The notes under the pieces were generated by a model, which was not told where the DNA came from, did not search any database, and worked only from the letters and a program-made list of their open reading frames with translations. This document shows, piece by piece, positions 9,695 through 45,974 of a stretch of 53,948 nt of DNA (position 1 is its first letter; each line of letters opens with the position of its first letter). A program made the position numbers and the translations under genes. Source of the DNA: Holophagae bacterium. Lineage in GTDB: Bacteria > Acidobacteriota > Thermoanaerobaculia > Thermoanaerobaculales > Sulfomarinibacteraceae. Location of the stretch: assembly GCA_003105185.1 (NCBI GenBank), contig PQAJ01000138.1:1-53948 (forward strand), read 5' to 3'.

Positions 9695-11461
9695 CTACAC
9701 CCGAATCTTGGTCTTCGCGAGCACGATGGCAAGCCGCTCGAGCAGGAACTCCTCGACCTCGCGCGAGGTCACCATCCCCAACGCCTGCCGCGCCATCTGC
9801 ACCGAATCCCGGTACGACAGCTGCCGGATCAACGCGCGCACCACCGGCACGGCCTGCGGGTTCATGCTGAAGCTCCGCAGCCCGAGCCCGACGAGCAGCG
9901 GCACCATCAGGGGGTCCGCGGCCATCTCGCCGCAGATCGTCACCGGAACGCCGGCCGCGTCCCCCGCCGCGCGCACGCCGGCGATCATCCGCAGCACCGC
10001 CGGGCTGGTCGGCCGGTAGAGATGCGCGACCTGCTCGTTGGACCGGTCGACGGCCAGCGAGTACTGAATCAGGTCGTTGGTTCCGATCGACAGGAAGTCG
10101 GTCTCGCGGGCGAGGTCCTCAGCCATGACAGCCGAGGACGGGACCTCGACCATGGCGCCGAGCGGAATCCCGTCCGGCGCACTGCGCCCTTCTTGCCGTA
10201 GCTCCGCGCACAGCCGGCGCACGAGCAGCCGGGCGACCCGGAACTCCTCGATGCCCGAGATCAACGGGAACATGATCCGGACGCGTCCGGTCGGGTACTC
10301 GCCCGCCACCCGCAGCAGCGCCCGCAGCTGGGTCCGAAAGAACTCCGGCTGGGAGAAGCACAGGCGGATGCCACGCAGCCCGAGCACCGGGTTGGCCTCG
10401 GTCGCGCCGATCACCTCACGCGCCAGCTTCTTGCCGCCGAGGTCGAAGGTGCGGATCGTGACCGGCCGTCCTTCCATGCGTTCCACGAGGTCGCGATAAA
10501 CCGCGAGGTGGTCCTCCTCCGAGGGCAGGTTGGGGCTCAGCTTCATGTACAGGAACTCGGAGCGGTAGAGGCCGATTCCGACCACGTTCCAGTCGACGGC
10601 GGTCTTCACCTCGTCGGTCAGGTCGATATTGGCCATCAACTCCATCGGCTGGCCGTCGCGGGTGACGGTCGGCAGCGTGCGCATCTGCAGCAGCTGCGCC
10701 TGCTGCTCCCGGTGCTCGCGCTGCCGTGACTGGAACTCGCTGATTTCAGCAGGGTTCGGATCGAACACGATCCGCCCCTCGAAGGCATCGAGCGCGACCT
10801 CCTGCGCGTGCTGCGCGAGCTGGCAGACGCCGTGGGCGCCGACCACCACCGGGATCCCCAGCGAGCGCGCGATGATCGTCGTGTGCGCCGTCGGCCCGCC
10901 CATCTCGAGCACGAAGCCGAGCACCTTGTCGAGCGGGAGCTGCACCGTCGTCGACGGCGACAGGTCGCTCGCCACCAGGATCACCGGGTGGTCGAGCGCC
11001 CGGAGCTCGCCCAGGTCGAAGCCGTGGAGCGCCTTGAGAATCTGGGTGGCGACGTCGAGCACGTCGAGCTTGCGGTCGGCGAGGTGGGCGTCGGGCAGGG
11101 CCTCGAAGCGCTTGACGAAGTTGGCCACCACCGAGTCGAGCGCCCACTCCGCGTTCACCTGCTGCGAGCGGATGATGTCCTCGACCGGCTCGAGGAAGGT
11201 CGGATCCGAGGCGATCAACTGGTGGGCCTCGAAGATGCCGGCGTACTCCGCCCCCATCTGCCGCGTCGCCCGCTGCTGGTTCTCTCGCATGCCCTCGACG
11301 GCGGTCGCAACCGCGTCGCGGAAGCGCGCGACCTCGGCCTCGACCTCGGCGAGCGGTAGGCCGATGCGGACCGTGGAGATCGGCAGGCTTTCGTGGATCA
11401 CCGGCTTGCCGATGGCGATCCCGGGGCTGACGCCCATGCCCGACAGCGAGGTGTGGCTCAT
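9695..11461 (-). CDS. ptsI: phosphoenolpyruvate-protein phosphotransferase (PTS enzyme I, no GAF domain)
   Basis: 588 aa with the active-site region GGPTAHTTIIARSLGIPVVVG and the C-terminal PEP-utilising motif SIGTNDLIQYSLAVDR. Confidence 0.95.
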   Translation of the reverse strand: MSHTSLSGMGVSPGIAIGKPVIHESLPISTVRIGLPLAEVEAEVARFRDAVATAVEGMRENQQRATRQMGAEYAGIFEAHQLIASDPTFLEPVEDIIRSQQVNAEWALDSVVANFVKRFEALPDAHLADRKLDVLDVATQILKALHGFDLGELRALDHPVILVASDLSPSTTVQLPLDKVLGFVLEMGGPTAHTTIIARSLGIPVVVGAHGVCQLAQHAQEVALDAFEGRIVFDPNPAEISEFQSRQREHREQQAQLLQMRTLPTVTRDGQPMELMANIDLTDEVKTAVDWNVVGIGLYRSEFLYMKLSPNLPSEEDHLAVYRDLVERMEGRPVTIRTFDLGGKKLAREVIGATEANPVLGLRGIRLCFSQPEFFRTQLRALLRVAGEYPTGRVRIMFPLISGIEEFRVARLLVRRLCAELRQEGRSAPDGIPLGAMVEVPSSAVMAEDLARETDFLSIGTNDLIQYSLAVDRSNEQVAHLYRPTSPAVLRMIAGVRAAGDAAGVPVTICGEMAADPLMVPLLVGLGLRSFSMNPQAVPVVRALIRQLSYRDSVQMARQALGMVTSREVEEFLLERLAIVLAKTKIRV

Positions 11462-11751
11462 TCCCCTTCCCCGAACCGGTCCGCGAACAGCGCGACCACC
11501 GCCCTCACCGCCTCCTCCTCGTCCTCTCCCTCTGCGCGCACCATCAGCGGCGTGCCCTTGGTCGCCGCGAGAGTGAGCAGCCCGAGAATCGATTTCGCGT
11601 TCACTTCTTCCTCGCCGGTGCCCACATAGACCTGGGATCGAAAACCGTTCGCCGTGTGCACGAGCTTGGCCGCGGCGCGGGCGTGGAGCCCGAGTCGGTT
11701 GATGATCTCCACCTGCTGCTGCGTCATGCCATCAGACTCCTGCACGGTCAA
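11458..11751 (-). CDS. ptsH: phosphocarrier protein HPr
   Basis: His-15 region INRLGLHARAAAKLV and Ser-46 region VNAKSILGLLTL. An alternative start at 11727 (MTQQQV) is possible. Confidence 0.9.
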   Translation of the reverse strand: MTVQESDGMTQQQVEIINRLGLHARAAAKLVHTANGFRSQVYVGTGEEEVNAKSILGLLTLAATKGTPLMVRAEGEDEEEAVRAVVALFADRFGEGE

Positions 11752-11809
11752 CTGGTCGACCGCGTGACCCGGGTGGCCGTGCGGTTCTCGTCATTGTAGC
11801 GGGTGAGCG

Positions 11810-12232
11810 TCAGCCGGCGCGAAAGTTCTTCGATCGCAGGAACTCGCTGGCGACGCGGATGCTCTTCTGTGCAGCGGCCGTGAGCCGCAGGGCGATTTCG
11901 CCAAGCGGCAGCTCCTGGCCGCGCAGCGAGCCCAGCTTCACGAGCATGGGGAGGTTCACCCCGGTCACGATCTCGACCCGATTCGGGTCGAGAAACGGCA
12001 GGGCCACGTTGGTCGCCGTCCCCCCGAACATGTCGGTCAGGATGAGCACGCCCTCGCCCTTGTCCAGGTCGCGCAGCCGTTGCTTCAGCGACCCGCTCGC
12101 CGAGTCCGAGTCCACGTCCCACGGCAGTGCGAGGGCCTCGGTCCGGTCCGCGAGCTGCGGGTCGATGGTCCGCGCGGCGTCGAGGAGGGCGACCGCGAGA
12201 TCACCGTGGGTCAGCACCAACACCGGGATCAT
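11810..12232 (-). CDS. PTS EIIA component, mannose family
   Basis: ORF trimmed to ATG 12232. MIPVLVLTHGDLAVALLDAA...GVLILTDMFGGTATNVA...VTGVNLPMLV is the EIIA(Man) pattern. Confidence 0.85.
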   Translation of the reverse strand: MIPVLVLTHGDLAVALLDAARTIDPQLADRTEALALPWDVDSDSASGSLKQRLRDLDKGEGVLILTDMFGGTATNVALPFLDPNRVEIVTGVNLPMLVKLGSLRGQELPLGEIALRLTAAAQKSIRVASEFLRSKNFRAG

Positions 12233-12234
12233 GT

Positions 12235-13101
12235 CTACCTCCACCGGTCCCTGTCGCGGTGGTGGACGACGACATCGTAACCAGCCTCGCGGACCGCCGC
12301 GGCGACCCGTTGCGCCACGAACACCGAGCGGTGCCGGCCGCCGGTGCACCCCACCGCGATGGTGACCTCGGCCTTCAGCTCGTGGGCGTAGCGAGGCAGC
12401 AGGTAGAGTAGCAGGTCCACCAGCCGTCCGATCGCCTCGCCAACCTCCGGGAATCGACCGAACCACTCGACCACCGCATCGTCGTCGCCGGCCAGCGAGC
12501 GGAGCTCGTCCTGGAAGTAGGGGTTGGGGAGAAAGCGAACGTCGAACACGACGCTGGCAGTGACCGGCGCGCCCTGGAGGTAGGAGAAGCTCTGGACCGC
12601 CACGACCATCTTTTGCGTGGTGTCGGTCGAGCCGGCGAGTGAGAGGATCTGCCGCTTGAGGTCGTGCGGGGTGAGTTGGCTGGTGTCGATGATCAAGTCG
12701 GCGAGCTCCCGGACCGGCATCAGCGAGGCCCGTTCGTCCGCGATCGCCTGCTCGAGGCTGCGGTCACGCAGGGGATGCGGCCGGCGCGCGATCGAAAAGC
12801 GCCGCATCAGCACGATCGGGGTCGCCTCCACGAAGACCACCCGCAGCGCGCTGCAGACCTCTGACAGCTCGCGGAGGATCTCGGCGAACTTCTCGGTCAA
12901 GCCGCGCGTCCGCACGTCGACGACCACGACCAGCTTCTCGAGCTCCGCCTTCGACGTCGAGAACAGCTCCGGCACCAGTTCGAGCGGAATGTTGTCGACG
13001 CACACGTAGCCGAGGTCTTCGAGGCTGCGGCTGAGCACTGTCTTGCCGGAGCCCGACAGGCCGGTGATCACGAACGGTCCGCGGAACGGCTGTTCAGCCA
13101 T
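12235..13101 (-). CDS. rapZ: RNase adapter / nucleotide-binding protein RapZ (YvcJ/YhbJ)
   Basis: Walker A motif FVITGLSGSGKT, plus the C-terminal GCTGGRHRSV motif. Start trimmed to ATG 13101. Confidence 0.9.
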   Translation of the reverse strand: MAEQPFRGPFVITGLSGSGKTVLSRSLEDLGYVCVDNIPLELVPELFSTSKAELEKLVVVVDVRTRGLTEKFAEILRELSEVCSALRVVFVEATPIVLMRRFSIARRPHPLRDRSLEQAIADERASLMPVRELADLIIDTSQLTPHDLKRQILSLAGSTDTTQKMVVAVQSFSYLQGAPVTASVVFDVRFLPNPYFQDELRSLAGDDDAVVEWFGRFPEVGEAIGRLVDLLLYLLPRYAHELKAEVTIAVGCTGGRHRSVFVAQRVAAAVREAGYDVVVHHRDRDRWR

Positions 13102-14104
13102 CGCTGCCCTCGTCGGTGTCGATGCCGCGCCTGGCGGCGATATCGTTGATCGCCTCCAGGAAGTCACGCTCGTCTTGGATGCCGCGCTGGGCGAGCAGGC
13201 ACTTGCGGACGGCGGTCTCGACCATGATCGCGAGGTCCCTGCCAGGCGCGACCACCATCGTGTAGAGCGGAATCTCGATACCGAGGATCTCCTCCGTCGT
13301 CGGCCACGAGTGGGGGTTCTCCATCACCTGCTCGCGCCACTTCTGCTCGAGCTTCCGGGAGTCGGGCCCCAGCTTCACGAGCCGGATCACGAGAGAGACC
13401 GGGATCGAGGGCGAGGTCGCCGTCATGCCGAAGTGGTTGCGCAGATCGATGATTCCGACGCCGCGCAGCTCGAGGTAGTTCTCGAGCAGCTCGTGTGGCG
13501 ATCCCACCAGGCCATGCGCGTGGGTGCGCCGGATCACGACCAGATCGTCGGCCACCAGCCGGTGACCGCGGTAGACCAACTCGAGCGCGCACTCGCTCTT
13601 GCCGATGCCGGCGTCGCCGACGATCAGGGTGCCGAGCGAGAACACGTCGACCAGCACGCCGTGGAGCTGGACGCGGGGCGCCAACTCTTCCTCGAGGAAG
13701 GCGGAGAGCCCCCCGATCAGGTCCGAAGTCCGGATTGCCGACGCCAGAAACGGCACCTCGAGCTCGTCGGATCGCCGCAGCACCTCGTCGGACGGCCGCA
13801 GCCCCTTCGCGGAGACGATGCACGGCACCTCGAGCTCGACCAGCCGGATCAGCCGGGACGCCGCCTCGCCGGGATCCATGGTTGCCAGGTAGGCGTACTC
13901 CGACTCGCCAAGAATCTGGACCCGGCCGGGCTTGACGTACGGGAGGTAGCCAGCGAGGGCGAGCCCCGGCTTTTGGAGGCGGGGGTTGGTGACCCACCGT
14001 CGATCGAGGCCGGCTGCCCCGGCCGCGACCTCGAGATGCATCGCCCGCAGCCGCTCGTCCTCGAACAGCGTCCGCACCGAAATCGAGCGCGCGTTAGCGT
14101 TCAC
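13094..14104 (-). CDS. hprK: HPr kinase/phosphorylase
   Basis: GVLVDVFSLGTLIVGDAGIGKSECALELVYRGHRLVADD is the HprK P-loop and signature. 336 aa. Confidence 0.9.
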   Translation of the reverse strand: MNANARSISVRTLFEDERLRAMHLEVAAGAAGLDRRWVTNPRLQKPGLALAGYLPYVKPGRVQILGESEYAYLATMDPGEAASRLIRLVELEVPCIVSAKGLRPSDEVLRRSDELEVPFLASAIRTSDLIGGLSAFLEEELAPRVQLHGVLVDVFSLGTLIVGDAGIGKSECALELVYRGHRLVADDLVVIRRTHAHGLVGSPHELLENYLELRGVGIIDLRNHFGMTATSPSIPVSLVIRLVKLGPDSRKLEQKWREQVMENPHSWPTTEEILGIEIPLYTMVVAPGRDLAIMVETAVRKCLLAQRGIQDERDFLEAINDIAARRGIDTDEGSDG

Positions 14105-14565
14105 AGTCCCTCCGCGTCCGCCGCCCGGCGCAGCGCGGCGATCACCTCGTCCCGGTCGGGCGCCTCGAGCAGCGCTTGCCGCAGGTCCTCCCGCTTCAGG
14201 ACGCGGGCGATCTGGGACAAGATCTTGAGGTGCGCGGTCGGCTGCTCCGGGGGCGAGAACACTACGAACAGGAAGCGCACCGGGCTGTCGTCCGGAGCAC
14301 CGAAGTCAACCGGGCCGGCAAAGCGCACGAGCGACAGGTCGACGGTCGAGACGCCGTTGACCTTGCCGTGCGGGATGGCGAATCCCATACCCACCGCCGT
14401 CGAGCCGAGACGCTCGCGCGCAAGCAGCGCCGCGACCAACTGGGAGACATCGCTCTGCAGCCTCGGGGCGGCGGCAGTCGCAGCGGCGTGAAGCGCGTCC
14501 ATCACGTCTCGTGCGGCGACATCCAGCACGATGCGGTCGCGGTCCGCGAAGTCGCGGATGTTCAT
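14101..14565 (-). CDS. ptsN: PTS EIIA-Ntr (nitrogen regulatory IIA)
   Basis: GSTAVGMGFAIPHGK active-site His region. The gene sits between hpf and hprK. Confidence 0.85.
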   Translation of the reverse strand: MNIRDFADRDRIVLDVAARDVMDALHAAATAAAPRLQSDVSQLVAALLARERLGSTAVGMGFAIPHGKVNGVSTVDLSLVRFAGPVDFGAPDDSPVRFLFVVFSPPEQPTAHLKILSQIARVLKREDLRQALLEAPDRDEVIAALRRAADAEGL

Positions 14566-15104
14566 CAGGACTCGGGCGTGATCAGGCCGAGGTCATGGCC
14601 GGTCCGCCGGTAGAGAACGTTGATGGAATCGCTCGAGGAGTTTCGGAACACCAGGAAGTCGCTGCGCGACTTCTCGAGCTGCATTACCGCCTCCTCGACG
14701 CTCATCGGCTTCACGGTGATCGTGCTGCGCTCGACGATCCGCGCCTCGCCAGCCGGGGCGGGCTCGGGCTCGGCCTCGGGACCCTCGACCGGCACCTCGC
14801 CGCGGCCGGTGCGGCTCTTGTGGTGCTTGAGCTTGGTCTTGGCGCGCCGCGCCTGGATCTCGAGCTTGTCGACGGCGTCTTGAATGGCAGTGGTGAGGTC
14901 CTTGTTCTGGCTGGTCGACTTGATGTCGAAGTCCTTCCCCCGAACCAGCAGGTCGGCTACGAACAGATGGCGCTCCTGCTCGAGCTCGAGACGAACGTCG
15001 AGGATGTCGTTGAAGTACTTCTTGATCTTGGCCAGTTTCTTCTCGGCCACCTGGCGAGCGTCGTCACTCAGATCCACCTTGCGCGCGACGTACTCGATCT
15101 TCAT
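14565..15104 (-). CDS. hpf: ribosome hibernation promoting factor, long form
   Basis: The N-terminus MKIEYVARKVDLSDDARQVAEKKLAKIKKYF and C-terminal dimerisation domain (PMSVEEAVMQLE...FLVFRN) fit HPF. The position directly downstream of rpoN is canonical. Confidence 0.9.
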   Translation of the reverse strand: MKIEYVARKVDLSDDARQVAEKKLAKIKKYFNDILDVRLELEQERHLFVADLLVRGKDFDIKSTSQNKDLTTAIQDAVDKLEIQARRAKTKLKHHKSRTGRGEVPVEGPEAEPEPAPAGEARIVERSTITVKPMSVEEAVMQLEKSRSDFLVFRNSSSDSINVLYRRTGHDLGLITPES

Positions 15105-15119
15105 CGGTGTCCTCCCATA

Positions 15120-16691
<1,572 letters not shown>

Positions 16692-16744
16692 GGTTGTGAG
16701 AGCTCGAGATCACGGCACTGTCACTGTGAGGGCCGGCGACCGCC

Positions 16745-17479
16745 TCACAGACGGAATTCTTCTCCCAGGTAGATCCGCCGCACGTCCTCGTTGTCGGACA
16801 GCCCAACTGGATCCCCCGTAGCAAAAATCTTGCCGTCCTTGATTATATAGGCGCGGTCCGTGATCTTCAACGTCTCACGAACGTTGTGATCCGTGATTAA
16901 CACGCCTATTCCCAATGACTTGAGATGGCTAATGATGCGCTGTAGATCGATCACAGCGAGCGGGTCAATGCCGGCGAACGGCTCGTCGAGCAGGATGAAC
17001 GTGGGGTCGATGGCGAGCGACCGGGCGACCTCGAGTCGGCGTCTCTCGCCGCCGGACAGCGTCTCGGCACGCTGGTGGCGCAGGGCGCTCAGCCCGAAGT
17101 CTTCGAGAAGGCCGTCGATCCGGCGCTGCGCCTCGCCGGCATCGGTGCCGAGCGCCTCGAGCACCATCCAGATGTTGTCTTGGACGTCGAGTCGTCGAAA
17201 CGCGCTCGGTTCCTGCGCGAGGTAGGCCACGCCGGCGCGAGCCCGGCGGAACATCGGCCAGGAGGTGATGTCGTCCTCGCCGAGCATCACCCGGCCGCCG
17301 TCAGGCTCGACCAGGCCGACCATCATGTAGAAGCAGGTGGTCTTACCGGCGCCGTTCGGGCCGAGCAGACCGACGATCTCGCCGGGCGCTATGCTCAGCG
17401 AGACGCCATCCACCACCTTTCGCCCGCGGTAGGACTTGCGCAGACTGTCGGCGACAAGATCGAGAGCTTGCGGACTCAG
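16745..17479 (-). CDS. lptB: LPS export ABC transporter ATPase LptB (probable CTG start)
   Basis: Walker [13 protein letters not shown], signature LSGGERRR and C-terminal YLGEEFRL. Conserved N-terminal residues [15 protein letters not shown] lie upstream of the ORF-track GTG (17416). The only SD-preceded codon there is CTG 17479..17477. Confidence 0.85.
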
Positions 17480-19422
17480 CGTCCCTCCTCCGGGTAGTAG
17501 ATGGTCTCGGTGCCGCCAGCGACGGTGACACTACCATCCGCCTGATTCCAGGTCAACGAAGAGCTCGACACTGCCGAACCGGTGGCATCCTCGAGGCGCA
17601 CCGGCGATCCGGTAGCGACCACTGTCCCCTGCTCCACGTCACGGATCGCGTGCTGCGCGGTCATGGTTCTTCCGGTGGCCAGCTCGCGCAGCTCGACGTC
17701 GCCGGTCGCCTCGACCTTCCGGATCTCGTCCTGCTCGTCGAACTCCGCGGCGAGCTCGGTCGCGGACAGCACGTTGTCCGGGTCGCTGTAACGGACGTCG
17801 CCCCTGAACACGGCGCGGCCCCCGAACCGCTCGTAGGTCAACGACCTGGCTGCGATCACGACCTCGCCAGCGGCCGCCTCGGAGCGGTCGACCTGACTCG
17901 AAGGAAAGGTCGCACGCACGTGTCCGGACGCTTCCACGACGCCCGCCTCCTCGCGGTAGGAGACATCGTCGGCGGTCAGCAGCCGCTTTCCCTGCCAGAG
18001 CCGCGCGCCGTCCCGCAGCCGGTAGCTCGCGCCGGACCCGGTCACCTCGAGCAGCTCCGCCGCAAAGTGAAGCGGCCCGGCGCCGTCACCGGTCTCGCTG
18101 CCGAGGATTGCGACCTCGCTGAGGGAACCCTGAACCTTGCCCCGCGCCTCCAGTCGGCCGTCGCGGTCGCTGATCTGAATCTGATCGCTGGTGATGTGCC
18201 CGCGCGGCGATGTCACCGACGCCCGCTCGAGGGCGGTCGGGTCGCCGTGGAGCATCGTGATCCCAGCGATCGATGAGAAGCGCGCCCGATAACCCGTCGC
18301 CTCGATGCCCTCGCCGCGGATCACCACCTGCTGCTCGAGCTGCATGTCAGTGGCGAGGCCGTCCTTGAACCACACCCGCGCGGCCGCCGCCTCTGCCGAC
18401 CTGGGATCTGCGTCGACCGGGATCTCGTCCAGGCAGACGCCGTCGTCAGCGCGCAGGTTGAGCGGGCCGTCCGGCGCGAGCACGCCGCGCAGGATGCGCG
18501 TCCGCAGCCTGCGCTCGAAGAACGCGTCACTGCCGCGCAAGACCACCGCCACCCAATCGCCGGTGGTCGAGGCGTCGATCTGCCAATTACCGTGGCCGTC
18601 GCGCTCCGCGACCACGGTCTCCGCCGCGAGCTCGCTGCCATCGCGGCCGCCGCCGCCGGGACCGCGAGCCTTGACCCCTCCCCGGAAGGTCACCCGCTGC
18701 GGCGGTCCTTCCGGCTCGGCCAGCTCCACGGTCGCGGAGGGGGCCATGATCCAGGCCTCCCCCTGGACGACCTTGCACCCGTGTGGGAACTCGATCGTGC
18801 CGCGTCCCCGCTGGTAGACGATCGTGTCAGCCTGCAGCGTGGTCCCACCCGAGGTCAGCAGCGCGCCGTCGGCGAGCACGAGCTGATCGTCATTCATCAG
18901 GTACATCGCCTGGCCGGCCTCGGCGACGGTGCCGCCGCTCATGAACACGACCTCGGAATCGGTGACGAACCGGCGGCTGCTCGCCTCGAAGTGGCCGCTC
19001 TGGGTGGTGACCGTGCCCCCGCTCGGGAAGCTGACGTGGATCGGGCCGCGCAGCTCTGCGTCGCGGGTCTCAACGTTGAAGCTCGCCGCCGCCGCCGTCA
19101 CCACCGGGCCGGCAACGCCGGCGTCGTAGAGCTGGAGCTGAACGCCCTCGATCTCATGCCAGCCCGACGACCGCCCCAGCGTCCGCAGCGAGCGCAGGGC
19201 GAAGATCGCCTTGCCGGCGATGCTCTCGACGTACTCGAAGCCGGTGTAGATGCCGACCGCGGGGTCGTCGACCTCGCCCTCGGCCACCGGCGGGGTTCGA
19301 TCCCCAGCCGGGCGCGCCATGCTGCGCGACCGCTGCACGCCGATGACGACCAGGGCCGCGATCGAGACCGCGATCAGTATCGCCGTGACGTAGCGGATCC
19401 ACTTGCGCGCGATCGCGCTCAT
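17476..19422 (-). CDS. membrane-anchored LptC/LptA (OstA-like) multi-repeat protein
   Basis: N-terminal TM helix ([22 protein letters not shown]), then repeated OstA-like beta segments (for example [27 protein letters not shown]...[11 protein letters not shown]). It occupies the lptC-lptA position immediately upstream of lptB-rpoN. Start trimmed to ATG 19422. Confidence 0.6.
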
Positions 19423-19503
19423 GCGGGCCTCAGGAGCAGCGGAATGCGGCACATGTCCCCAACGAGGGTACCGCACTCCCGGGCGGTGGAGCGCTGGCGC
19501 GGG

Positions 19504-43531: not shown

Positions 43532-44467
43532 CTATGGCTCGACCCTGGTCCCCTGCTCATCGAGGAACCACAGCCGACAGGCGAGCCTGACGCCGCAGCG
43601 CTCGGCCACGCGATCCCGCATCATCCGGTACAGCTCGGCGACGTCGCGCGCCGAGCAGGCCGCCGTGGTCACGATGGCATTCGACGACCAGTCGGCGACC
43701 CGAGCCCCGCCGAATCGCAGCACTTCACAGCCCGCGCGCGCGAGCAGGGTGGCGGCGGAACCGCCACGCGGATCTTGGAAGACGACCGGAGCCACCCGCC
43801 CGCGCAGCGGTCCGACCGGCCGCCGGGCCGCCCCCACTCGCAGCCCGCGGAGTGGCTGGGAGGGCTGCCCCGGCCGCAGCCGCACCCTGGTGATGACCGC
43901 CCGCCCCTCCCCCAAACCTGCCGCCCAGGCCGTGTCGCTGTCGTTGGGGGCGACCCGGGTGGGTCCTGCCCCGGGCCGTGCAACCTCGATCCAGTCGGCA
44001 AGACCGATGACGGTCGACGGCTCGCCGAGCGCCGCGGCCCGCAGATCGCCGCCGGCGCTGCCCGGCTCCCCGATCAGGCGGTCCAGCTCGGGTGGCCCGG
44101 ATCGTGCCAGCGAGCCACCGACCTGTGCCAACTTGGCACCCGCGCCGACGATCACGCCGCCGTCCCCCTCCGCCGTGCAGCGTTGCAGCTCGCCTGCGAG
44201 GTGCAGCAGCGGGACCCGAAGCCCGCGGTCGGGGGCCACGATCCTGCTGCCGGCGCCGAGCACCAGCCAGCGCAGGCCGTGGCTGGCGAGCAGGTCGATG
44301 GCGCGCTGCCCGGCCGATGCCGTGCTGCAGCGGATCAGGAGGTCGCCGAGCCCGCCGATGGCGAGCGTCGTCCACGCGCCGAGGTCGACGCGCTCGTGCA
44401 CCTCGAGGTCGCCGCCGAGGCGGAACTCCCGGAGCAGAGTTTTGAGGGTTGAGGGCAGGTCACCCAC
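43532..44467 (-). CDS. murB: UDP-N-acetylenolpyruvoylglucosamine reductase-like protein (divergent MurB)
   Basis: FAD-binding-type N-terminus (WTTLAIGGLGDLLI...VLGAGSRIV) and a MurB-like C-terminal domain. Start trimmed to GTG 44467 because the upstream 39 codons cover an intergenic-looking region. The catalytic-Ser region is divergent. Confidence 0.6.
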   Translation of the reverse strand: MGDLPSTLKTLLREFRLGGDLEVHERVDLGAWTTLAIGGLGDLLIRCSTASAGQRAIDLLASHGLRWLVLGAGSRIVAPDRGLRVPLLHLAGELQRCTAEGDGGVIVGAGAKLAQVGGSLARSGPPELDRLIGEPGSAGGDLRAAALGEPSTVIGLADWIEVARPGAGPTRVAPNDSDTAWAAGLGEGRAVITRVRLRPGQPSQPLRGLRVGAARRPVGPLRGRVAPVVFQDPRGGSAATLLARAGCEVLRFGGARVADWSSNAIVTTAACSARDVAELYRMMRDRVAERCGVRLACRLWFLDEQGTRVEP

Positions 44468-44493
44468 GCTGCAACGCTCCCGGCCCAGTGACC

Positions 44494-44508
44494 TGGCACG
44501 GTGCTTGC
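44494..44508 (+). promoter_or_regulatory. sigma-54 promoter, TGGCAC-N5-TTGC (full consensus match)
   Basis: The plus strand reads cTGGCACGgtgcTTGCt at 44494..44508, in the gap between the murB-like start and the stop of the sigma-54 activator gene. Confidence 0.6.
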
Positions 44509-44519
44509 TTAACTCCGCA

Positions 44520-44601
44520 CCAGCCAGTCGACGCAACGAACTGGTACACGCATCATACCTCCTCCTTCCTCCTGCGGACCTCACGGTCCGCTCCTTTTTT
44601 T
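44520..44601 (+). ncRNA. candidate sigma-54-dependent small RNA (about 80 nt) with C/U-rich anti-SD tract
   Basis: The predicted TSS is about 12 nt after the -12 GC. A 5' stem-loop (CCAGT 44524..44528 / ACTGG 44540..44544) is followed by the unpaired tract ACCTCCTCCTTCCTCCT (44557..44573) and an intrinsic terminator. No plus-strand ORF starts downstream of the predicted TSS. Confidence 0.5.
44574..44601 (+). terminator. intrinsic terminator (GCGGACC-tcac-GGTCCGC + TCC T7)
   Basis: A 7-bp GC-rich stem, 4-nt loop and a run of 7 T on the plus strand only. It abuts the TGA of the convergent activator gene. Confidence 0.6.
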
Positions 44602-45974
44602 CAGGGGTTGCGGCTCCCGAGGCCGAGGCTGCGAAGGTGGTAGAGGAGGGTCTGCCGGGAGATCCCGAGCTCGCGCGCCGCCGCGCTCCGGTTGCCGCCG
44701 TGACGGTGGAGGGCCCGGTGAAGCAGCCGCCGCCGGAAGTCGGCTGTGGCCTGGCCCCAGCCCTGCGGCGCGGTGCTCCCGCCTTCCCCGAACGGCAGCA
44801 TCGCTCGGGTCACGACGCCGCCCCTCGCCTCGACCATCCCCAGCTCCACCGCGTGCCGCAGCTCCCGGATGTTGCCCGGCCAGTGGTAGCGAAGGAGCGC
44901 GTTCTCGGCCGCCTCGCTCCAGCGGCACGGCGGCAGCCCGATCCGGAGCGACGCCTCCTTCTCGAAGAGGTGGCGAAGCAGCGGCAGGTCCTCGATCCGC
45001 TCCCGCAGCGGCGGCACCCGCACCACCGCCGGCGCCAGGCGGTAGTAGAGGTCGGCACGAAACGACCCGTCGTCGATCCCCGTCAAGAGGTCGCGGTGAG
45101 TCGCCGATACGACCCGCGCATCGACGGTGTGGAACACGGTCGACCCCACCGGCCGCACCTCGCCGGACTCCAGGACCCGCAGCAGCTTGGCCTGCATGGC
45201 GAGGTCGAGGTCGCCGATCTCGTCCAGGAACAGCGTCCCCCGATGGGCGGCCGTGACCAGCCCCTGCCGCGCCCGATCCGCGCCGGTATAGGCCCCGCGC
45301 ACCGAACCGAAGAGCTCGGCCTCGATCAGCTCCTTTGGAATCGCCGCCACGTTGACCGGCACGAAGGCCCCGGTCCTTCCCGAGAGCCGGTGAACGGCCT
45401 GCGCCGCCACCTCTTTGCCGACTCCAGTTTCGCCGAGGATCAGCACGGCGATGTCGGTTGGCGCGATTCGCCGCAACTCCGCCCGCAGGCGCGTCGCTGA
45501 CGCCGAGCGGCCGTGGATGCCGGTGTCGTCGTCCTCGGCGCCGGCCCCGGTCTCCCCGGCGACAGCCGCCATGGCGAGCAGGCCGAGGAGCGTCCTCCAG
45601 ATCGGGCCCTCGCGCGGCGGCCCACCCATAGGCGTGACCCGCAGGGCGCCGCTCGTGACCTCGCCGTGGGCGGCACCGCCGCCACAGCGCCAGACGACCC
45701 TCCCGCTGCCCCGACAGTGGACCTCGATCCCGCTCAGACCGAGCGAGCGCAGGAGCCGGCTCGACTGCGCCTCGCTCAGCGCCCAGGGATCGCCCTCGCA
45801 CGAAAGCACTGCCAGCGCGTCGAGCGCCCCCTCATCGAGCGGGTGCGAGCCCGCGCCGCCGATGGGCAATGGCCTCGCGACCTCCGCGACCCGGGCAGCG
45901 GGATCGCTCAGCCCGCCGGCGACGTCAGCGCCCGCCATACCTCCCAAAAGGAGGGGAAGGACGTGGTGACGCAA
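44601..45974 (-). CDS. sigma-54-dependent transcriptional activator (bEBP) with non-receiver N-terminal domain
   Basis: AAA+ core GETGVGKEVAAQAVH, GAYTGA variant of the GAFTGA loop (ELFGSVRGAYTGA), WPGNIRELRH, and C-terminal HTH AARELGISRQTLLYHL. The N-terminal 150 aa or so are not recognisable as a response-regulator receiver. Confidence 0.9.
   Translation of the reverse strand: MRHHVLPLLLGGMAGADVAGGLSDPAARVAEVARPLPIGGAGSHPLDEGALDALAVLSCEGDPWALSEAQSSRLLRSLGLSGIEVHCRGSGRVVWRCGGGAAHGEVTSGALRVTPMGGPPREGPIWRTLLGLLAMAAVAGETGAGAEDDDTGIHGRSASATRLRAELRRIAPTDIAVLILGETGVGKEVAAQAVHRLSGRTGAFVPVNVAAIPKELIEAELFGSVRGAYTGADRARQGLVTAAHRGTLFLDEIGDLDLAMQAKLLRVLESGEVRPVGSTVFHTVDARVVSATHRDLLTGIDDGSFRADLYYRLAPAVVRVPPLRERIEDLPLLRHLFEKEASLRIGLPPCRWSEAAENALLRYHWPGNIRELRHAVELGMVEARGGVVTRAMLPFGEGGSTAPQGWGQATADFRRRLLHRALHRHGGNRSAAARELGISRQTLLYHLRSLGLGSRNP

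Follow-up and report, generated by a model that had tools for sequence, protein, structure and literature searches.

The question raised by this locus is what function resides in a 133-bp spacer (44468-44600) that separates two minus-strand genes, coding for a MurB-like protein and a sigma-54 bacterial enhancer-binding protein (bEBP), respectively. The window (i.e., the whole stretch of DNA analyzed, 53,948 nt in length and 69% in G+C content) was contig PQAJ01000138.1 of assembly GCA_003105185.1, assigned to a Holophagae bacterium (Acidobacteriota). An original prediction, made from the letters of this window, had placed in the spacer a complete plus-strand unit for a sigma-54-dependent small RNA (sRNA) with an anti-Shine-Dalgarno seed. 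The sequence comparison described below led to a similar answer: the unit was probably the gene of a sigma-54-dependent sRNA of ~80 nt, and the presence here of a real sigma-54-type sRNA gene was regarded as very likely. The sRNA family was previously undescribed (no Rfam match, no literature description found), and it combined three unusual features: (i) a 23-nt invariant seed; (ii) a fixed place between the gene of its presumed activator and a divergent murB; and (iii) a candidate enhancer inside this murB.

The predicted sigma-54 (-24/-12) promoter TGGCACGGTGCTTGC (44494..44508, plus strand, with GG at 44495-44496 and GC at 44507-44508) was a full match to TGGCAC-N5-TTGC, and no other exact match was present on either strand of the 53,948 bp; shuffled sequences gave an expectation of 0.07, with at least one exact match in 7 of 100 window shuffles, and tolerance of one mismatch added just one more promoter-like site in the window. 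The predicted sRNA transcript (44520..44601, plus strand, ~82 nt) would start 12 nt after the C of the -12 element and end in the U run, and it was composed of three successive parts: (i) a 5' stem-loop (44523..44545), in which helix 1 was formed by 44523-44529 paired with 44538-44545; (ii) the 23-nt single-stranded, anti-Shine-Dalgarno-like tract CAUCAUACCUCCUCCUUCCUCCU (44551..44573), located between the two hairpins; and (iii) an intrinsic terminator (44574..44601), composed of a 7-bp G+C hairpin GCGGACC-TCAC-GGTCCGC (44574-44591), TCC, and U7 (T7 at 44595-44601), which the terminator scan reported on the plus strand only. The minimum free energy (MFE) fold of RNA 44519-44601 (plus strand) displayed the 5' hairpin, the open tract, and the terminator hairpin at -23.4 kcal/mol (z = -3.7; 1 of 200 shuffles folded as well), and the tract had a mean unpaired probability of 0.96. 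The original prediction had described all of these, namely the full promoter match with ~0.1 chance occurrences in the window, the terminator oriented for the plus strand, the fold, and the unpaired tract including the anti-Shine-Dalgarno core ACCUCCU, and each of them was borne out.

The sequence comparison was extended to relatives that were collected through the MurB-like protein: an alignment of 21 homologues led to 80 metagenome loci, two long contigs were added, and 83 loci (designated by L numbers) were available in total. The MurB-like homologues formed a graded series from 93% to 29% identity, and most of them had 310-311 aa. Among the first 81 loci, 73 had the C/U core CCTCCTCCTTC upstream of murB and in antisense orientation to it; the other eight comprised six loci with too little upstream flank (one of them, L073, had a variant C/U tract that was later recovered by a covariance model) and two outliers with 23-29% MurB identity. 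Reduction to distinct sequences left 61 regions, window included, across which the parts of the unit were shared as follows: the identical 23-mer CATCATACCTCCTCCTTCCTCCT in 54, the 15-mer core of the tract in 59, TGGCAY-N5-TTGC in 60, and a hairpin followed by at least five T in 59, the other two ending at a contig edge. The whole unit recurred even where MurB identity to the window was only 34-50%, and the tract was conserved in loci with MurB identity of 37-50% and, in most of them, bEBP identity of ~50-58%.

The pattern of conservation within the unit followed the predicted functional elements. Across the structural alignment of 46 distinct homologues, TGGCA and TTGC were invariant, while variation was seen in the N5 spacer and over the 12-14 nt that follow the element; the family consensus of the promoter was tTGGCAcGccgtTTGCTt, which fitted the extended sigma-54 consensus. 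Sequence conservation resumed at the predicted +1 (44520), after variable positions -11..+1; these positions and the bases past the T run were unalignable among the homologues and served as an internal control for neutral drift. TGGCAY-N5-TTGC was located at the sRNA position, on the sRNA strand, in 74 of the 83 loci, with one copy there per locus; a second match in L018 and L019 was intragenic, lying inside the helix-turn-helix codons of the bEBP gene, and was judged to be due to chance. The -24/-12 element, the C/U tract, and the terminator recurred jointly among the related loci with order and strand kept, and the predicted homologous transcripts were 77-89 nt long (median 81). Alignment of related murB-bEBP regions had been put forward in the original prediction as a check on the unit, and it revealed the promoter, the C/U tract, and the terminator kept in ~60 distinct sequences, together with covariation in the helices.

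The covariation was seen in both helices. Paired cells amounted to 99.1% over the two helices, compared to 22-41% in slid-partner controls, and changes on both sides of a pair were counted in 36 cells against a shuffled mean of 10.8, a value reached by none of 500 shuffles. Helix 1 was paired in 98% of cells and included one compensatory pair (GC:30, UA:11, GU:3, AU:1) and a second alternating pair (GU:29, AU:14, GC:3); the terminator helix was 100% paired and had two covarying pairs (GC:25/AU:19/GU:2 and CG:38/UA:5/UG:3). Two positions of helix 1 were G-U pairs (in 45/46 and 29/46 sequences), and an RNA of the murB strand would have C-A mismatches there. The unit was assigned to the plus strand because of these helix 1 G-U pairs, the promoter, and the T run, and not because of MFE. 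A second long hairpin was observed just past the sRNA terminator in six loci (L050, L052, L055, L057, L059, and L062); its 5' arm opened with the terminator T run and its 3' arm closed in an A run, e.g., TTTTTTTGAGCCCACAGCTCGGAGCTGTGGGCTCAAAAAA. This hairpin may represent an alternative fold or a terminator working in both directions.

Covariance model R1, built from the structural alignment, gave 77 hits in 84 sources, one per source, and the hits were always located between the bEBP gene and murB and antisense to both; the sources lacking a hit had almost no upstream flank or were the two distant MurB outliers. The single R1 hit in the window covered 44488-44601 (plus strand) with 119.6 bits. 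Variant members came from two lineages, namely L073 (111-223, minus strand), which had a pyrimidine-only altered tract CAUCCUCCCUCCCCCUCCCUCCU, and L021 (1508-1614, minus strand) together with L069. A search of the window with Rfam 15 at gathering thresholds gave no family match, in keeping with the earlier remark that the RNA belonged to no recognized family, and relaxation to E<=10 gave only a sub-threshold narK match plus an unrelated long non-coding RNA fragment. The narK match (44495-44534, plus strand) scored 18.6 bits, compared to 43.2 bits needed, and was aligned only to the promoter GGCAC-N5-TTGC; the alignment suggested that the narK Rfam model itself starts with a sigma-54 promoter-like sequence. 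A full-text literature search with the tract sequence and with Acidobacteria, sigma-54, and small RNA as terms retrieved nothing relevant, and an exact scan of viral contigs for the tract plus the hairpin start gave no match.

The conserved core order at these loci was bEBP gene, sRNA gene on the opposite strand, and murB. By tblastn, a bEBP orthologue (48-92% identity) ended just beyond the sRNA terminator in every sufficiently long locus, and the match included part of the N-terminal region in many loci. The original prediction had likened the arrangement to sRNA genes located beside the gene of their sigma-54 activator, and the adjacency in relatives supports this idea at the level of gene order.

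Sigma-54-dependent sRNAs adjoining activator genes include Qrr with LuxO in Vibrio, GlmY with GlrK-GlrR in Enterobacteria, and CrcZ with CbrB in Pseudomonas; Qrr, GlmY/GlmZ, and CrcZ, as well as alpha-r14, are among the Rfam families. Qrr has a long invariant unpaired region and feeds back on luxO, GlmY/GlmZ control the cell-envelope precursor enzyme GlmS, neither Qrr nor GlmY is known to be antisense to the leader of a neighboring gene, and GlmY and CrcZ are protein decoys with repeated motifs. Compared to Qrr, GlmY, and CrcZ, the RNA described here had a single pyrimidine tract, was tied to murB instead of glmS, and matched no Rfam family. Pxr of Myxococcus, a system with pxrR/pxrK, is encoded beside the NtrC-like activator gene pxrR and has a predicted sigma-54 promoter with an upstream enhancer region (PMC5684412). 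Pxr/pxrR resembled the present pair in that the sRNA gene and the activator gene were conserved together across a whole lineage (PMC5684412), but pxr was located immediately downstream of pxrR, while the sRNA gene found here was convergent with the bEBP gene and divergent from murB; moreover, Pxr has three stem-loops and no C/U anti-Shine-Dalgarno tract, and it belongs to a different phylum.

A palindrome GTGCCA-N3-TGGCAC (44125..44139) lay within the murB gene, at 369 bp on the upstream side of the promoter. The window contained a single copy, compared to an expectation of 0.10 when up to one mismatch was allowed, and the palindrome occurred once per locus in 74 of the 83 loci, at the same murB codons and at a nearly constant distance from the promoter (363-369 bp). 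Each half-site was identical to the -24 hexamer. The codons GGT GCC AAx xTG GCA CAG were almost fixed in sequences picked independently of the palindrome, the Gly and Ala codons just before it varied freely, and other invariant Gly/Ala codons of murB had top-codon frequencies of 0.35-0.67; the sequences behind these frequencies had been chosen for having the palindrome, and for this reason evidence was taken from the remaining columns alone. Judged from codon usage, the palindrome is under nucleotide-level constraint. The obvious reading is that it represents a candidate binding site of the bEBP, i.e., a candidate enhancer.

The seed tract resembled the 3' end of 16S rRNA twice (ACCUCCU and CCUCCUU), with CAUCAU in front; this double likeness gives it complementarity to strong Shine-Dalgarno sequences that precede an AUG. 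The sRNA probably acts by base pairing through this tract, which is held less firmly than the existence of the gene. Ultraconserved unpaired anti-Shine-Dalgarno seeds CCUCCUCCC that pair with translation initiation regions are known from alpha-r14/NfeR1 and AbcR1/2 of rhizobia, and NfeR1 silences ntrBC, an operon with a bEBP among its products (PMC10746234). LsrB activates and NtrC represses NfeR1, which is not sigma-54-dependent and carries its motif three times in hairpin loops (PMC10746234); in the present RNA, by contrast, a single 16-nt tract separated two hairpins, the promoter was of the sigma-54 type, the host belonged to another phylum, and no Rfam family matched.

The sole perfect complement seen for the tract was its own opposite strand, i.e., the bEBP-murB spacer carrying AGGAGGAAGGAGGAGGUAUGAUG. 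The duplex with the murB-strand sequence reached -45.9 kcal/mol, while the next best site in the window reached -29.1 kcal/mol and lay in coding sequence. The recurrent duplex matches were likewise coding: the bEBP Walker A motif, a site within the long bEBP open reading frame (ORF), and a Glu-rich stretch of npr. The statement that GGAGGAGG precedes several genes of the window did not hold: seven copies were present against 4.4 expected, and most of them lay in likely coding regions of a rough ORF map. At the bEBP start in the clade of the window, UUGGGAGGUAUGG / GGAGGUAUG faced the seed CAUACCUCC with nine Watson-Crick and two G-U pairs; this complementarity, conserved in the close clade, which is the one where bEBP starts were recovered, makes feedback on the activator possible. 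The bEBP start region (45936-45965, minus strand) contained CCUUCCCCUCCUUUUGGGAGGUAUG, with a C/U stretch that could pair with the GGGAGG of the gene itself. The purine tract AGGAGGAAGGAGGAGGUAUGAUG (44551-44573, minus strand) also resembled the universally conserved 16S rRNA segment GGAGGAAGGUGGGGAUGACG (E. coli ~1175-1195), the two having GGAGGAAGG in common, which may be coincidence; the window itself contained no 16S gene.

The proposed mechanism is as follows: sigma-54 RNA polymerase would bind the -24/-12 element at 44494-44508, and the neighboring bEBP would open the complex, perhaps from the murB palindrome; transcription would begin near 44520 and end at the hairpin plus U7 of 44574-44601; the tract would then pair with ribosome-binding regions, resulting in a translation block or cleavage. 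As the perfect complement is the bEBP-murB spacer, a murB mRNA crossing the sRNA gene would be the first target, bound along ~80 nt. Such an mRNA probably crosses the sRNA gene, to judge from the murB strand: in the window and two distant loci, the stretch from the bEBP gene to murB had neither a terminator nor a sigma-70 consensus on this strand. TTGTGT and A/T-rich hexamers noticed by eye in some loci suggested a sigma-70 promoter for murB within the sRNA gene, but this was rejected, given inconsistent spacing and no hit in the consensus scan. By this mechanism murB, and possibly the bEBP message, would come under sigma-54 control, and more trans targets might exist. A physiological target in the murB leader or in the bEBP-murB spacer was held to be possible, at somewhat less than even confidence.

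Several points weigh against a sigma-54-dependent sRNA working in this manner. Every locus was found through MurB, so the linkage to murB is ascertained on murB itself. L021 and L069 kept the tract and the terminator with no canonically spaced -24/-12 element, and their 5' hairpin differed. The candidate enhancer was single and ~365 bp away, farther than most bEBP sites. MFE showed no preference for the sRNA strand, with a small advantage of the opposite strand in 44 of 56 sequences. A duplex-energy scan of the window and of the loci with their flanks gave no convincing trans target and no conserved site at a start region. The host organism is known solely from metagenomes, and the transcript itself is one that we infer from its sequence. 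In addition, a cis-antisense RNA needs no invariance and a trans-acting RNA needs no linkage to murB, and neither mode alone explains both features. Because the invariance of the tract is unneeded for pairing in cis, it points to trans targets, to a protein partner, or to a ribosome-binding function of the complement.

The alternative that survived best was a purely local device, in which sigma-54 transcription lowers murB expression with no trans targets, either because polymerase occupancy or collision interferes with transcription or because a cis-antisense RNA pairs with the bEBP-murB spacer; it was considered unlikely, though not negligible. In its favor, all loci with enough flank had the unit in front of the murB of this subfamily, and it occurred nowhere else in the DNA scanned, the spacing between the -24 element and the murB start codon was nearly constant (26 nt in the window and 24-27 bp in the loci checked), and the murB strand had the uninterrupted character described above. 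The unit also resembled chromosomal cis-antisense RNAs in its full complementarity to the bEBP-murB spacer, which would give perfect pairing with any crossing transcript, and the duplex scans gave no trans target. This last result says little, however, because the target scan covered the window plus the locus flanks. What a local device leaves unexplained is the retention of 23 identical nt at ~40% MurB identity while the flanking non-coding bases drift; cis-antisense RNAs rarely show such invariant sequence across distant lineages, and an unpaired seed, two hairpins, and a U tail make up the usual build of a trans-acting sRNA.

An RNA that binds a protein or the ribosome, either as a sponge or decoy of an RNA-binding protein or as a mimic of the 16S rRNA 3' end, was considered improbable. 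A long unpaired tract of extreme invariance is typical for protein-binding decoys, the scan of the window and locus flanks identified no mRNA target, and a RapZ-like adaptor gene was present in the rpoN cluster of the window, as a parallel only. However, the tract occurred once per RNA, with none of the repeated motifs of CsrB/RsmZ or CrcZ, no candidate protein partner was linked to the locus, and a near-perfect anti-Shine-Dalgarno tract is more simply read as a base-pairing element.

Slightly less probable still was that the murB strand is the functional one, namely a murB leader with a very strong ribosome-binding site AGGAGGAAGGAGGAGG plus the AUGAUG of an upstream ORF whose peptide is irrelevant, the promoter match and the T run being by-products. 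The upstream ORF of the window was the 15-codon MMRVPVRCVDWLVRS (44509..44556, minus strand); it follows the purine tract to which the seed is complementary, and the junction reads AGGAGGAAGGAGGAGG-U-AUGAUG. The UAUGAUG right after the purine tract was as invariant as the tract itself, one Shine-Dalgarno register, as read from the sequence, was suitably spaced from the second AUG, and the murB-strand RNA folded at least equally stably. Nevertheless, Shine-Dalgarno function needs no 16 identical bases, and a leader assigns no role to the exactly spaced, invariant TGGCA/TTGC, its free spacer, or the T run on the opposite strand; on the murB strand, moreover, helix 1 G-U pairs turn into C-A mismatches. 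The ORF frame, length, and stop position varied as well: the homologues were distributed over at least three frames (MMRVPVRC.., MMSCTRSLC.., MMSYQVVVC.., MMRLPGRC.., and MMLYQFFQ..), resulting from single-base indels in the conserved block, their lengths ranged from 3 to more than 69 codons, their stops lay anywhere from 95 nt before murB to inside murB, and L058 had no ATG though it kept the tract. A conserved peptide was therefore excluded, which contradicted the 15-codon ORF as a specific translated peptide, a rival that the original prediction had itself raised; a type I toxin-antitoxin system was rejected too, the ORF peptides being neither conserved nor hydrophobic.

That a promoter-like match and a hairpin fell together by accident in this short spacer and have no function was hardly credible: the ~7% of shuffles with a match concern a single window, and the comparative data contradicted it, with a covarying arrangement kept in ~60 distinct sequences at MurB identities of 34-94%.

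With a sigma-54-dependent sRNA thus preferred, its wider meaning can be stated conditionally. It is a speculative and rather doubtful extension that bEBP gene, sRNA gene, and murB make up a three-gene sigma-54 module, which would gate the first committed steps of peptidoglycan precursor synthesis by means of a murB-encoded enhancer, a promoter overlapping the murB leader, and an anti-Shine-Dalgarno sRNA that silences the very strong ribosome-binding site in the spacer and, through it, murB and perhaps the bEBP. If so, the module would be a functional counterpart of the GlmY/GlmZ control of glmS, built from unrelated parts, and additional strong ribosome-binding sites might be open to the seed as well. 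If expressed as predicted, the sRNA would represent a further lineage among the few sigma-54-dependent sRNAs whose genes adjoin those of their activators, and it would tie sigma-54 signaling to cell-wall precursor synthesis in a Holophagae-like group; knowledge of small RNAs is close to nil for the Acidobacteriota, which are dominant in soil and sediment and largely uncultured. The alignment and covariance model R1 can be converted into an Rfam-style family for the annotation of metagenome-assembled genomes (MAGs), and the murB palindrome offers a candidate binding site for an uncharacterised bEBP.

Both flanking genes had been correctly delimited by the original prediction at the ends facing the spacer. 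The MurB-like gene (UDP-N-acetylenolpyruvoylglucosamine reductase family; 43532..44467, minus strand) started with GTG at 44467, encoded 311 aa, and was divergent from the sRNA gene. Its product contained the Pfam domain MurB_C, with FAD_binding_4 marginally under the cut-off, matched MurB chains of PDB with E values down to 1.7e-19, and scored 97 bits, below the NCBIfam equivalog cut-off of 259. It was recognized as a member of a divergent MurB subfamily that was linked to the bEBP and sRNA genes throughout, the outliers L080 and L081 lacking the unit. Among the genome matches listed in the MurB scan, the closest came from a MAG labeled "uncultured Holophagae bacterium", which at 94% identity in MurB was too similar to be informative.

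The bEBP gene (44601..45938, minus strand) was convergent with the sRNA gene, and its stop codon at 44601 shared one base with the sRNA T run. The longest ORF opened at 45974, and translation probably starts instead at the ATG of 45938. The protein contained Sigma54_activat (5.8e-60), AAA_lid_14, and HTH_8, and a GAYTGA loop was readable in the translation; no equivalog match to any named bEBP was obtained, and the 140-aa N-terminus matched no Pfam family even at E<=10. The bEBP had ~445 aa in the clade of the window, while the ORF exceeded 900 aa in distant clades (L020-L067); that of L083 (2058-5897) was 1279 aa as called. The sensory N-terminal part differed greatly among clades, while the sRNA stayed constant.

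Beyond the conserved core, gene content varied among the loci: a TPR gene followed murB in distant clades, and rhomboid and AMMECR1 genes recurred. A murA gene (EPSP_synthase family) was found directly upstream of the bEBP gene in L014, L082 (3728-4993), and L083 (679-1944); being restricted to these three loci, murA adjacency was rejected as a general feature. In the window, the place of murA was taken by a gene for a 278-aa protein with no confident domain, and there was no murA beside the bEBP gene.

The gene for sigma-54 itself, rpoN (15120..16709, minus strand), was present in the window as originally reported, and its product displayed Sigma54_AID, Sigma54_CBD, and Sigma54_DBD together with the RpoN box ARRTVAKYR. 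RapZ of enterobacteria is the adaptor of the sigma-54-linked GlmY/GlmZ sRNAs. The rpoN neighborhood (9695-19503, minus strand) was canonical, comprising an LptC/LptA-like gene, rpoN, hpf (S30AE), a RapZ-like gene (12235-13323), an HPr-like gene (npr; 11458-11751), and ptsI (9695-11461).

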